A DNA stretch of 64,000 bases from an uncultured Thermoleophilaceae bacterium (GTDB lineage: Bacteria; Actinomycetota; Thermoleophilia; Solirubrobacterales; Thermoleophilaceae). The stretch covers positions 360,410-424,409 of the forward strand of contig CAVXKC010000009.1 in the NCBI GenBank assembly GCA_963762265.1. The letters are read 5' to 3'. The translations under genes and the position numbers were made by a program. Numbering within the stretch: the stretch's first letter is position 1; every line of letters starts with the position of its first letter. Shown here in pieces: positions 4,513 through 15,057 of the stretch. The notes under the pieces are model-generated. The model was not told the DNA's origin. It made no database searches and saw only the letters and a program-made list of their open reading frames with translations.

Positions 4513-4763
4513 CCAGAGCGGAGGTCCTTCAGCGCATCCGGGAGCACCTGGCCACCGAGTTGGAGGTGGATGCGGGGCGTATCGGCGAGGACACGCGTTT
4601 CCGAGAGGACCTCGAGGCGGACTCGCTCGACCTGGTCGAGCTGGTGGTCGAGCTCGAGGACAGCTACGGGGTTCGTATTCCCGACGAGGAGGCGACCAGG
4701 ATCCAGACGGTCGGACAGGCCGCGGACTTCGTCGCCGCCCATGCCGCGGAGCTCGAGCACTGA
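4509..4763 (+). CDS. acpP: acyl carrier protein
   Basis: GTG 4509 overlaps the plsX stop (GTGA). The product reads VTRAEVLQRIREHLATELEVDAGRIGEDTRFREDLEADSLDLVELVVELEDSYGVRIPDEEA, with the DSLD phosphopantetheine site. Confidence 0.85.
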   Translation: MTRAEVLQRIREHLATELEVDAGRIGEDTRFREDLEADSLDLVELVVELEDSYGVRIPDEEATRIQTVGQAADFVAAHAAELEH

Positions 4764-5442
4764 GAGCCTCGCAGCGCTGCTCGGCGAGCTGCCGGAGGAC
4801 CTGCGCCGGCAGGCCTTCACCCATGCGTCGTGGGTGGAGCACCGCTCGCAGTCCTACGAGCGGCTCGCGTTCCTGGGGGACGTGGTCCTGAGCCTGGCCG
4901 TCTCCACCCACCTCTATCCCGCGCTTCGAGCGCTACGGGGCCGGACGCCTGACGAAAGTGCGCGCCCAGGCGGTCAGCGGCGCCTCGTGCGCACGGGTGG
5001 CGCGCGGGCTGGGCGTGGCGGAGGAGCTGCTCAGCGCCGCCCCCGCGGGCACCACCGGGCGCAGCGCGGAGATGCTCTTGGAGTCCGAGCGCGTGCTCGC
5101 CTCGATCTGCGAGGCGATCATCGGGGCGGCTTACCTGGCATTCGGCTTCGAGCGCACCTCACTGGCGGTGGTCGAGTCGTTCGCCGCCGAGATCGACGAG
5201 TCGCTCGAGCACCCGGTGGACTACAAGTCGGTGTTCCAGGAGCGCCTGGCGCGGCGGGCCGAGGTCGTGGTGTACCGAACGGTCTCCGAGGAGGGGCCGG
5301 CTCACGATCGCTCGTTCGTCGTATGTGGCCGAGGTGGCGGGGGAGGAGCTCGGGCGCGGGGAGGGAAAGACGAAGAAGGGCGCGGAGCAGGAAGCCGCGC
5401 TGCAGGCGCTCGACGTGCTTGGACGAGGCGGTGGCCGGCTGA
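4741..5442 (+). pseudogene. rnc: ribonuclease III, two apparent +1 frameshifts (near 4925 and 5318)
   Basis: Frame 1 gives FTHASW...YERLAFLGDVVLSLAVSTHLYP. Frame 2 gives RFERYGAGRLTKVRAQAVSG...ESERVLASICEAIIGAAYLAFG...YKSVFQERL...GPAHDRSFVV. Frame 3 gives the dsRBD tail VAEVAGEELGRGEGKTKKGAEQEAALQAL. The exact stop is uncertain because frame 3 runs into the smc ATG. Confidence 0.8.
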
Positions 5443-13059: not shown

Positions 13060-13460
13060 TCGAGATCGACCCGCACCGTCACGGGCTCGGTCGCCCATCA
13101 GCCGCACGACCGCGGAGTTCATCCGGTTGGGCATCCGCCGCTGACGCGCACGCCAGTCGTCACCGGCCAGCACATGCGCGGTCCCGCTGCGCCAGCGCCG
13201 CCCGACGCGCACCCGCACCCGCGGATGCGGCCTCGATGTTGCGCACGTAGGAAGCGCCGAGGCCGTGCTCGGCCACGACCCAGAGCGTGTCGCCCTCCAG
13301 CGCCCGGCCGACCGGCGTGCGCCGGGGCTGGCCCGACCTGCGGCCCGTCGTTTCCAGGATCACGATCGCCGGGGAGCGGGAGCCCGGCGCGGGCGGCCGC
13401 CTTGACCAGAGGGTTGACGCAGGCGGGTCGAGAGCCACGTCGACAGCCGGCGCTTGTCCA
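13056..13460 (-). pseudogene. deazaflavin(F420)-dependent nitroreductase-family (DUF385-like) protein, at least 3 frame changes
   Basis: The minus strand gives MDKRRLSTWL..., NPLVKAAARAG, IVILETTGRRSGQPRRTPVGRALEGDTLWVVAEHGLGASYVRNIEA, NPRVRVRVGRRWRSGTAHVLAGDD and VRLMG..TEPVTVRVDLD in different frames. The family call rests on motif memory only. Confidence 0.55.
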
Positions 13461-13540
13461 TCGCGACAAGCTACCGGAGGCGAGTGCGCGCTCTGCAGCG
13501 AGCCGCGCCCGCGGACCTATCGCGCTCTTGCACGCAGGCA

Positions 13541-13712
13541 CTAGATGATTGATTTCGAATCCGTGTGCCTTCGGGGGCGCGCCAGACCAAGCTGGGCGGC
13601 GCACGCGGACGAAGCCGATAGTTGAAGAACTATCGGCGAGGACGCGGGTGGCGAACCAGCGCCGGTATGGCGCGTCATCCGAAGGTGCACGGGTTTGGAA
13701 TCAGTCATCTAG
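13541..13712 (+). ncRNA. candidate structured RNA or MITE-like palindromic element: 172-nt rod-like hairpin
   Basis: 34-nt arms 13541-13574 and 13679-13712 pair with 28 Watson-Crick pairs plus 6 G-U pairs and no mismatch on the + strand. The helix continues inward to a perfect 10-bp apical stem (13614-13623 / 13628-13637, GAAG loop). The arms are AT-rich, both termini are CTAG, and no credible ORF covers it. Confidence 0.5.
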
Positions 13713-13724
13713 CCTTCCCCGAGC

Positions 13725-15057
13725 ATGTTCGACGCTCTCTCCGACCGCCTCCAGGCAGCCCTCGGCGACGTCCGCTCACGCGGCAAGCTGACCGAGGACG
13801 ACGTCAACAAGGCGATGCGCCAGGTGCGCCTGGCGCTGCTCGAGGCAGACGTCAACTTCAAGGTCGTCAAGCAGTTCACCGCGGCGGTCAAGGAGCGCGC
13901 GCTCGGGCACGACGTGCTCGACTCGCTCAACCCCGGCCAGCAGGTGGTGAAGATCGTCTCCGACGAGCTGACGACGCTGATGGGCGGGGCGGGGCGCGAC
14001 CTCGCACTCGCCAAGCCAGGGCCGACCGTGATCCTGATGGCCGGCCTGCAGGGCTCGGGCAAGACCACCGCCTGCGGCAAGCTCGCGCGCCACCTGCGCG
14101 AGGAGCACAAGATGGACGTGGCGGTGGCGGCCTGCGACGTCTACCGGCCCGCCGCGGTCGACCAGCTGGTCAAGGTCGGCGGCCAGGCCGGCGCCCACGT
14201 GTACGAGCAGGGCACGGGCCGCGACCCGGTCGACATCGCCGAGTGGGCGCTCGACCAGGCCAAGCGCGACCGCCGCGACGCCCTGATCGTCGACACGAGC
14301 GGCCGCCTGCACGTCGACGAGGAGCTCATGCAGGAGCTCGCCGAGATCAAGAAGCGCACCAAGCCGCACAACGTGCTGCTGGTGGTCGACGCGATGACCG
14401 GCCAGGACGCGGTCAACGTGGCTGAGCAGTTCGCGGAGGTCGCGAACTTCGACGGCGTCGTCCTGTCGAAGCTTGACGGCGACTCGCGCGGCGGCGCGGC
14501 GCTCTCGGTCAAGGCGGTCACCGGCAAGCCGATCCTGTACGCCTCCACCGGCGAGAAGCTCGGCGACTTCGAGCGCTTCCACCCCGATCGCATGGCCCAG
14601 CGCATCCTCGGCATGGGCGACGTGATGACGCTCGTGGAGAAGGCCGAGCGCCAGATGGACGAGCGCCAGGCGGTCGAGCTCGAGCGCAAGATCCGCAAGG
14701 AGCAGTTCACGCTCGACGACTTCCTCGAGCAGATGAAGCAGGTGCGCAACATGGGGCCGATCGGCAACCTGCTTGAAGATGATGCCCGGCGTCGGCGCTC
14801 AGCTCGGCAACCTCAACGTCGACGAGAAGGAGCTCGACCGCCTGGAGGCGATCATCCTGTCGATGACCCCCGAGGAGCGGGCAAACCCGAAGATCATCGA
14901 CGGGTCGCGCCGGCGCCGGATCGCGCGAGGGTCGGGGACGAACGTGCAGGCGGTGTCGCAGCTCGTCAAGCAGTTCGCCCAGATGAAGAAGCTGATGAAG
15001 CAGGTGTCGGGCGGCAAGATGCCCAACCTGCAGCAGCTGGCCGGCGGCCGCGGCTGA
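13725..15057 (+). pseudogene. ffh: signal recognition particle protein Ffh, one apparent +1 frameshift at about 14773
   Basis: MFDALSDRLQAALGDVRSRGKLTEDDV...ILMAGLQGSGKTTACGKLA...IVDTSGRLHVDEELM...VVDAMTGQDAVN...LSKLDGDSRGGAALS...GMGDVMTLVEKA...MGPIGNLL is in frame 3. The M-domain KMMPGVGAQ...LEAIILSMTPEERANPKIIDGSRRRRIARGSGT follows in frame 1. The local sequence is CTGCT[T]GAAGATG. Confidence 0.9.

Follow-up and report, generated by a model that had tools for sequence, protein, structure and literature searches.

A hairpin upstream of ffh in a Thermoleophilaceae genome is probably one copy of a dispersed, TA-flanked MITE family with one-strand G-U pairing

Analysis of a 64,000 nt stretch of DNA from an uncultured Thermoleophilaceae bacterium, referred to here as the window, revealed a 172 nt hairpin directly upstream of ffh that is very probably one copy of a non-autonomous DNA transposon (MITE) dispersed in Thermoleophilia genomes. 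On comparative analysis, the repeats related to it are best explained as a previously undescribed MITE family of this class, which shares no sequence with RUP, Correia or ERIC elements but works alike; a literature search found nothing on this repeat family or on MITEs in Thermoleophilia. Explaining a hairpin beside an essential gene as a mobile insertion averts a false annotation as an ffh riboswitch, leader or sRNA, and the repeat family, absent from the sources checked, occurs in a poorly studied, mostly uncultured class of soil actinobacteria. A TAG stop codon or TANNNT box rebuilt from a duplicated TA would show how a TA-targeting element can persist at ~70% G+C, and the G-U polarity found across the family hints that a single-stranded state, whether of RNA or of DNA, is important for the element.

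Structure of the hairpin

The hairpin (13541-13712; CTAGATGATTGATTTCGAATCCGTGTGCCTTCGG ... CCGAAGGTGCACGGGTTTGGAATCAGTCATCTAG) was a near-perfect rod of 172 nt. Its outer arms, 13541-13574 and 13679-13712, formed a 34 nt inverted repeat with 28/34 Watson-Crick pairs, and the six non-complementary positions were transitions that all gave G-U in + strand RNA, so that 34/34 positions were paired on that strand. These consecutive arm pairs, and the helix continuing inwards from them to a perfect 10 bp apical stem with a GAAG loop, had been described in an initial annotation made from the sequence alone; both were borne out by an inverted-repeat search and by RNA folding. The G+C content of each arm was 16/34 (47%) in surroundings of 65-80% G+C, and CTAG was present at both termini, also as annotated.

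The RNA folding that the annotation had proposed as a check gave -126.6 kcal/mol for the + strand compared to -62.2 +/- 4.1 kcal/mol in 200 dinucleotide shuffles (z -15.9; 0/200 equalled it) and -87.8 kcal/mol for the - strand (z -9.1). The hairpin is a genuine, non-random structure. With DNA folding parameters the + strand gave -66.2 and the - strand -50.2. Mechanically called ORFs overlapped the hairpin and none was conserved, because the interior sequence differs between the subfamilies described below; the earlier view that no credible ORF covers the element was upheld. There was no U-tract on the hairpin, and a scan of 13350-13800 for the intrinsic-terminator consensus was negative.

The + orientation of the element is defined here as the one in which every arm mismatch is G-U. 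The parts of the window copy and the neighbouring genes, each with the evidence used, were as follows.

13542..13543, no strand: left TA of the presumed target-site duplication, with a C before it (TA at -2/-1 in 19/25 copies; empty sites)
13544..13709, +: probable MITE proper, 166 bp, subfamily A (93-96% identical full-length copies elsewhere; family alignment A1)
13544..13574, +: left terminal inverted repeat, GATGATTGATTTCGAATCCGTGTGCCTTCGG (first ~26 nt kept in all subfamilies and short variants)
13575..13678, +: interior rod with internal loops (helices kept while the sequence varies between subfamilies; RNAalifold)
13614..13637, +: apical 10 bp stem (13614-13623 with 13628-13637) and 4 nt GAAG loop (inverted-repeat search, fold)
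13679..13709, +: right terminal inverted repeat, ...GGTGCACGGGTTTGGAATCAGTCATC (sequence comparison)
13710..13711, no strand: right TA of the presumed target-site duplication (TA at +1/+2 in 23/25 unique copies)
13710..13715, +: TAGCCT, putative TANNNT -10 box (invariant in six ffh loci, alignment A2)
13725..15057, +: ffh, with SRP54 N, G and M domains (Pfam, translations, comparison with locus L051)
13119..13462, -: divergent gene, homologue of F420H2-dependent quinone reductase (gene calls in L001, L002, L051 and L052; alignments)

The left repeat together with the preceding TA, read from the sequence, carried stops in all three frames (TAG, TGA, TGA). The right repeat differed from the left by transitions only, each giving G-U on the + strand. 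In subfamily C the apical stem was GTTCATGCAT GAAT GCATGGAC, another sequence in the same place and with the same shape.

Both ffh and the gene upstream of it contained single-base indels relative to their homologues, so the family pattern is more certain than any single base of the window copy. The ffh reading frame was broken by one extra T near 14773 (14770-14776; CTGCTTGAAG compared to CTGC-TGAAG in L051), past which the M domain continued in another frame, and the quinone-reductase-like gene (13119-13462, - strand) had several such indels. These are probably long-read assembly errors rather than signs of pseudogenes. A separate 64 nt imperfect palindrome (13431-13494) lay across the start of the divergent upstream gene and gave weak, chance-level matches to miRNA models on both strands.

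A dispersed family of related elements

A 22 nt degenerate arm pattern matched 19 contigs among the GTDB species representatives. Eight were from the Thermoleophilaceae MAG JBEVKF01, eight from the Actinomycetota MAG JAFAQQ01 and one from a Solirubrobacterales MAG; the remaining 2/19 look like chance matches. A slightly more degenerate pattern matched 29 JGI metagenome contigs, several of which represented the same sites as the MAGs. These two scans of public contigs, once duplicates had been removed, yielded 25 distinct complete copies of 44-208 nt, with Thermoleophilaceae, Solirubrobacterales, other actinobacterial MAGs and soil metagenomes as their sources. Several further copies were cut off at contig ends, which suggests that the repeat probably breaks assemblies. 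The other single-repeat matches were of three kinds: copies truncated where a contig ended, solo remnants, and chance matches to N-terminal coding sequence.

The initial annotation had also proposed BLAST against the genome and its relatives; in a BLAST comparison, full-length copies with 93-96% identity to the window copy were present at unrelated loci of a Thermoleophilaceae MAG. At least eight contigs each in JBEVKF01 and JAFAQQ01 carried copies, and their flanking genes differed. Pattern searches allowing three mismatches and an nhmmer profile found no second copy in the 64 kb window. There was no match to the 172 nt in BLAST searches of plasmids and phages, and none in a pattern scan of viral contigs. 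An Rfam scan, likewise proposed earlier, matched no described family: gathering thresholds gave 0 matches across the whole window, and a scan of 13300-13900 at E <= 10 gave only chance-level ones (E ~1-10).

All copies had terminal inverted repeats of ~30 nt (GATGAYTGATT...AATCAGTCATC), and the first and last ~26 nt were kept in 25/25 unique copies, arms-only variants included. The forms differed in length and interior.

Subfamily A (window type): 166-167 nt
Subfamily A variant with a 43 nt internal palindromic insertion: 208 nt
Subfamily C, with the same termini and a largely different interior: 163-164 nt
Hybrid that joins an A interior to a stem of the C type: 198 nt
Short variant: 79 nt
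Forms consisting of the arms only: 44-59 nt

Bacterial MITEs are defined as AT-rich, highly base-paired elements with terminal inverted repeats and target duplications (PMC3049150). The MITE features found in the present family were a length of 44-208 bp, no conserved coding sequence, terminal inverted repeats, dispersed copies and TA flanks accompanied by empty sites.

Some individual copies had further peculiarities. The 43 nt insertion of the 208 nt variants (TGCCCAGCCGCAAGCACTCGGCTCTGCCGAGTGCGCGCGGATCCG; L013 3694-3901, L021 351-558, L008 6709-6916 and L038 807-1014) adjoined the apical stem and had a 9 bp palindrome of its own; it may have arisen by duplication or be a small element nested within the larger one. 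At ~4811-4835 of L003, a mini-palindrome of ~25 nt (CTAGATGGACCTGGAATCAGCCATCTAG) composed of two truncated termini adjoined a full copy (4642-4807) and looks like a second, almost wholly deleted copy inserted in tandem. The hybrids (L042 539-736 and L030 1-137) combined a subfamily A interior with the CCTGG/CCAGG stem of subfamily C, which points either to recombination between the subfamilies or to compensatory change that took place more than once.

The terminal-repeat pattern was also found at apparent gene starts in five loci from unrelated phyla (L028, L031, L035, L043 and L006). There it read ATG ACT GAT TCC AAA CCC CTG, encoding MTDSKPL, with no TA flanks and no second arm, and these loci were treated as chance matches to the coding sequence of a common N-terminal peptide rather than as family copies.

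Ends and target site

Flanking bases were counted in the element's own orientation in the 25 unique copies. TA was present at positions -2/-1 (left) in 19/25 and at +1/+2 (right) in 23/25; position -3 was C in 20/25, and position +3 was G in 14/25 and A in 9/25. The target consensus was C-TA-R. The element's first G and last C were constant even where the adjoining flank base differed, which argues that the duplicated unit is TA and not CTA or CTAG. As the target TA is invariant, a duplicated TA is indistinguishable from one borne by the element, so we infer the duplication. The left flank of the window copy did not align with its relatives, and the 78 nt spacer at 13463-13540 did not align with their ~33 nt spacer.

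The initial annotation had suggested that the CTAG termini and AT-richness would fit a MITE-like palindromic insertion, with IS5-type duplication of a YTAR/CTAG target as the model. The insertion itself was supported by the terminal repeats, TA flanks, dispersed copies, size variants and empty sites, whereas the flanks did not agree with its IS5-type part. An IS5-family-derived MITE that duplicates a 4 bp CTAG/YTAR target would account for the CTAG on both sides of the window copy, but a left CTAG was combined with a right CTAA in 9 and CTAC in 2 of the 25 copies, and where the left flank base was G or A the right end still read ...CATC-TA. This origin is very improbable, and duplications of 4 bp (CTAG) and 3 bp (CTA) were both rejected on the flank statistics of the 25 copies.

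Members of the IS630 family take TA as their insertion target and duplicate it (PMC2170065); the passage of that paper which cites Tenzen & Ohtsubo 1991 gives, for IS630 itself, a preference for TA within CTAG. Judged from sequence, the TA flanks and C-TA-R target fit a 2 bp duplication of the IS630/Tc1-mariner type.

Insertion at the ffh locus

The ffh ATG was at 13725, 12 nt past the last base of the hairpin, and ffh was followed by rpsP. Ffh homologues with 92-97% identity were labelled Thermoleophilaceae. In 5/5 orthologous ffh loci (L001, L002, L051, L052 and L053) the gene order was the same and the element was missing; at the corresponding point each had a single (C/T)TAGCCT, with 7-9 nt between it and the ffh start codon. 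The junctions in the window read ...C-TA-[GATGA...TCATC]-TA-GCCT..., which places a 166 bp element within the TA of this hexamer. By sequence comparison, the five orthologous loci are empty sites.

The initial annotation had named a cis leader of ffh, a 6S-like rod and a processed sRNA among its candidates; the position of the hairpin 12 nt before ffh, its shared orientation with that gene and its very stable fold would agree with these. Such a conserved regulatory leader, or an RNA gene tied to this locus, would have to be reconciled with its absence from five orthologous loci encoding 92-97% identical Ffh, with the occurrence of the element elsewhere, in either orientation, at 24 or more unrelated sites, and with the lack of a match to any Rfam family, 6S included. 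An ffh-linked RNA of this kind is scarcely credible. A leader conserved at this locus is refuted, while an incidental local effect of the insertion on ffh is possible.

The TAGCCT hexamer did not vary among the six ffh loci and in each lay 7-9 nt upstream of the start codon (alignment A2), and comparison of the six revealed no Shine-Dalgarno sequence before ffh. A sigma-70 consensus scan of 13350-13800 found no promoter match. In actinobacteria the -10 consensus is TANNNT; its centre lies 7-12 bp before the transcription start, and a consensus for a -35 box is lacking (PMC3898074). It is possible that TAGCCT is the -10 box of a leaderless or near-leaderless ffh mRNA; given the TANNNT match and the missing Shine-Dalgarno sequence, ffh may be leaderless and the hairpin perhaps outside its mRNA. 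The insertion would have struck the TA of TAGCCT, and duplication of this TA would have rebuilt the hexamer beside ffh. With the hexamer restored, ffh expression would probably be little affected, the -10 assignment being putative.

Insertion in stop codons

ORFs flanking the copies were called on each side by their GC3. At 10 flanks, the neighbouring ORF ended exactly at TA plus the terminal base of the element, which points to insertion in a stop codon, with the element's G (or C, on the other strand) rebuilding TAG. Several other flanking ORFs ran a few bases into the element and terminated there at a TGA. Both element ends, CTAGATGATTGA and CTAGATGACTGA, carried stops in all three frames. 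In genomes of ~70% G+C, TA is scarce other than in stop codons and promoter -10 boxes, so that most TA dinucleotides tolerating insertion would be of these two kinds, and ends that rebuild TAG and supply three-frame stops would render insertion there almost neutral. Genes reading into the element showed no orientation bias: ~10 would transcribe the + version and ~9 the - version.

Strand polarity of the pairing

The preference for one strand was found across the family. Every copy folded 10-47 kcal/mol better in the + orientation (~20-40 kcal/mol for full-length copies). RNAalifold analysis of a 15-sequence alignment (A1) gave 53 pairs, 9 of them with compensatory double changes; 98.5% of the alignment cells were paired on the + strand compared to 83.8% on the - strand, and sliding the partners lowered pairing to 33-44%. 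The covariation score was 0.225 compared to 0.130 in shuffles, and 0/500 shuffles reached it. When ten more copies were added to alignment A1, the structure columns of the 25 sequences contained 971 Watson-Crick, 164 G-U, 4 A-C and 23 other cells. Ten distinct columns were G-U in a subfamily consensus and none was A-C. One stem segment occurred in three fully paired states (TTC/GAA, CCT/AGG and CGC/GCG), and in the light of hybrids L042 and L030 these states are not a single split between A and C.

Within subfamilies, single transitions in Watson-Crick pairs produced G-U 13 times and A-C 4 times (p = 0.049), and 14 transversions broke pairs. The hairpin is thus conserved at the family level with a real strand polarity, and constraint on individual copies is weak. 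The family-wide wobble argues against a structure-free, pure MITE, for which the initial annotation had expected dispersed copies with non-compensatory arm differences; the nine compensatory pairs were found instead.

That annotation had taken strand-specific preservation of wobble pairs to point to selection on an RNA. The wobble is real and family-wide, at 164 G-U against 4 A-C cells, and RNA is one possible level at which the constraint may act; the orientation of copies is unbiased and single-stranded DNA has the same asymmetry. The element could be a mobile structured RNA, that is, a MITE whose + strand transcript is the selected product, which would add to the MITE reading and not replace it; candidate roles for this transcript are those of an RNase III target, of a 3' hairpin that stabilises or terminates, and of a small-RNA precursor. 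The cell counts and the 10 G-U consensus columns against 0 A-C would agree with this, as would the better + strand fold of every copy, the nine compensatory pairs, the stem with three paired states and the excess of new G-U transitions. Many copies lay directly after stop codons and would be co-transcribed, and there is precedent in Correia/NEMIS and ERIC elements, which act as RNA hairpins (PMC2229807). Several observations speak against it. Orientation relative to genes was unbiased (~10 against ~9), the - strand also folded strongly (z -9.1), and the asymmetry under DNA parameters (-66.2 against -50.2) means that G-T pairs in single-stranded DNA explain the polarity equally well. Moreover, most G-U positions are shared by descent, leaving few independent events, and the 14 pair-breaking transversions imply weak constraint on single copies. 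We regard selection on the transcript as possible though unlikely, and an RNA function of the element, with which the polarity is compatible, as a minority possibility.

The polarity may also stem from a requirement, intrinsic to the element, that one strand be folded, or from a mutation bias of the element itself. A more far-reaching proposal, which is doubtful at present, is that the + strand hairpin is selected as an RNA (processed dsRNA, the precursor of a small RNA, or a self-limiting regulator of the element's transposase) while the ends evolved to home to and repair the stop codons and -10 boxes of high-GC genomes; the G-U polarity would be its signature.

Model of mobilisation

The reading that we prefer is a MITE moved in trans. 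Terminal inverted repeats of ~30 nt flank a non-coding, palindromic interior, so that the whole unit forms a rod. A transposase encoded elsewhere, most likely a DDE enzyme of the IS630/Tc1-mariner type, would bind the inverted repeats, excise the element and paste it into a TA, preferably within C-TA-R, duplicating the TA. The wobble pattern would have been inherited from the family ancestor and still be weakly maintained, and its polarity suggests that a single strand must fold at some stage, as a + strand transcript or as ssDNA. Mobilisation was probably by an IS630-like transposase, an assignment to family made because of the TA flanks and target preference only.

A search of the 53 fetched loci and the window for an autonomous partner with matching repeats, sought as an inverted pair 0.6-4 kb apart enclosing a transposase gene, was negative. 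The only distant inverted repeat pair, 1 kb apart in L032, was rejected as an autonomous element, as it encloses a gene of the inositol monophosphatase family and not a transposase; the ORFs beside single-repeat matches in L005 and L047 were rejected as partners because they too were not transposases. A solo terminal repeat lay on one side of the Pfam Inositol_P gene of L032 and a short remnant on the other (564-587 and 1555-1579). The longest ORF of this locus started at an ATG inside the repeat (TAG-ATG-ACT-GAT-TCC..., MTDSKPL), and the TAG stop of its upstream gene was the TA+G junction.

Mobility as single-stranded DNA through an HUH/Y1 enzyme (REPIN/RAYT-like or IS200/IS605-derived) was also considered. 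Such an enzyme would recognise the hairpin on one DNA strand, which would explain tolerance of G-T on one strand; the asymmetry holds under DNA folding parameters, the whole element is a hairpin as in REPINs, and neither the window nor any of the 53 fetched loci yielded a DDE partner. The TA flanks on both sides and the single TA at the empty site nevertheless fit a 2 bp duplication, and the deletion derivatives retain both termini, as expected if DDE cut-and-paste needs both ends. To our knowledge, IS200/IS605 elements and REPINs have no target duplication and no long terminal inverted repeats at their very ends. We consider this route improbable, and DDE-type movement of a MITE the better account.

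Comparison with known systems

The IS630/ISY100 elements of the Tc1-mariner superfamily resemble the present family in insertion at TA with TA duplication, and the CTAG preference of IS630, as given in the passage noted above, is close to C-TA-R. They differ in being autonomous elements of ~1 kb that encode a transposase, whereas the present element encodes nothing and no matching IS was found.

Among non-coding elements, the enterobacterial ERIC/IRU sequences are imperfect palindromes of ~127 bp that form an RNA hairpin and have an orientation-dependent effect on neighbouring transcripts (PMC2229807). The likeness lies in the imperfect palindrome that forms a hairpin; the difference is that orientation matters for ERIC, whereas that of the present family relative to genes was unbiased.

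The Correia/NEMIS elements of Neisseria are co-transcribed with their neighbours and form long RNA hairpins for which RNase III cleavage has been proposed (PMC2229807). They are unrelated to the present family in sequence and phylum and, unlike it, have IHF sites and promoter-like ends. Both are hairpin-forming MITEs with full-length and internally deleted size variants.

RUP, the repeat unit of pneumococcus, which is mobilised by IS630-Spn1, is a non-coding element of 107 bp with insertion at TA, terminal inverted repeats, stops in six frames and a tight hairpin (PMC2229807, PMC3049150). It has no sequence similarity to the present family and its host is a low-GC Firmicute. This partner IS of RUP has been identified with matching repeats, whereas none was found here, and neither a one-strand G-U bias nor stop-codon rebuilding is mentioned for RUP in PMC2229807 or PMC3049150. 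In the remaining respects RUP and the present family are alike, each being a small non-coding MITE with paired terminal repeats, a hairpin and insertion at TA.
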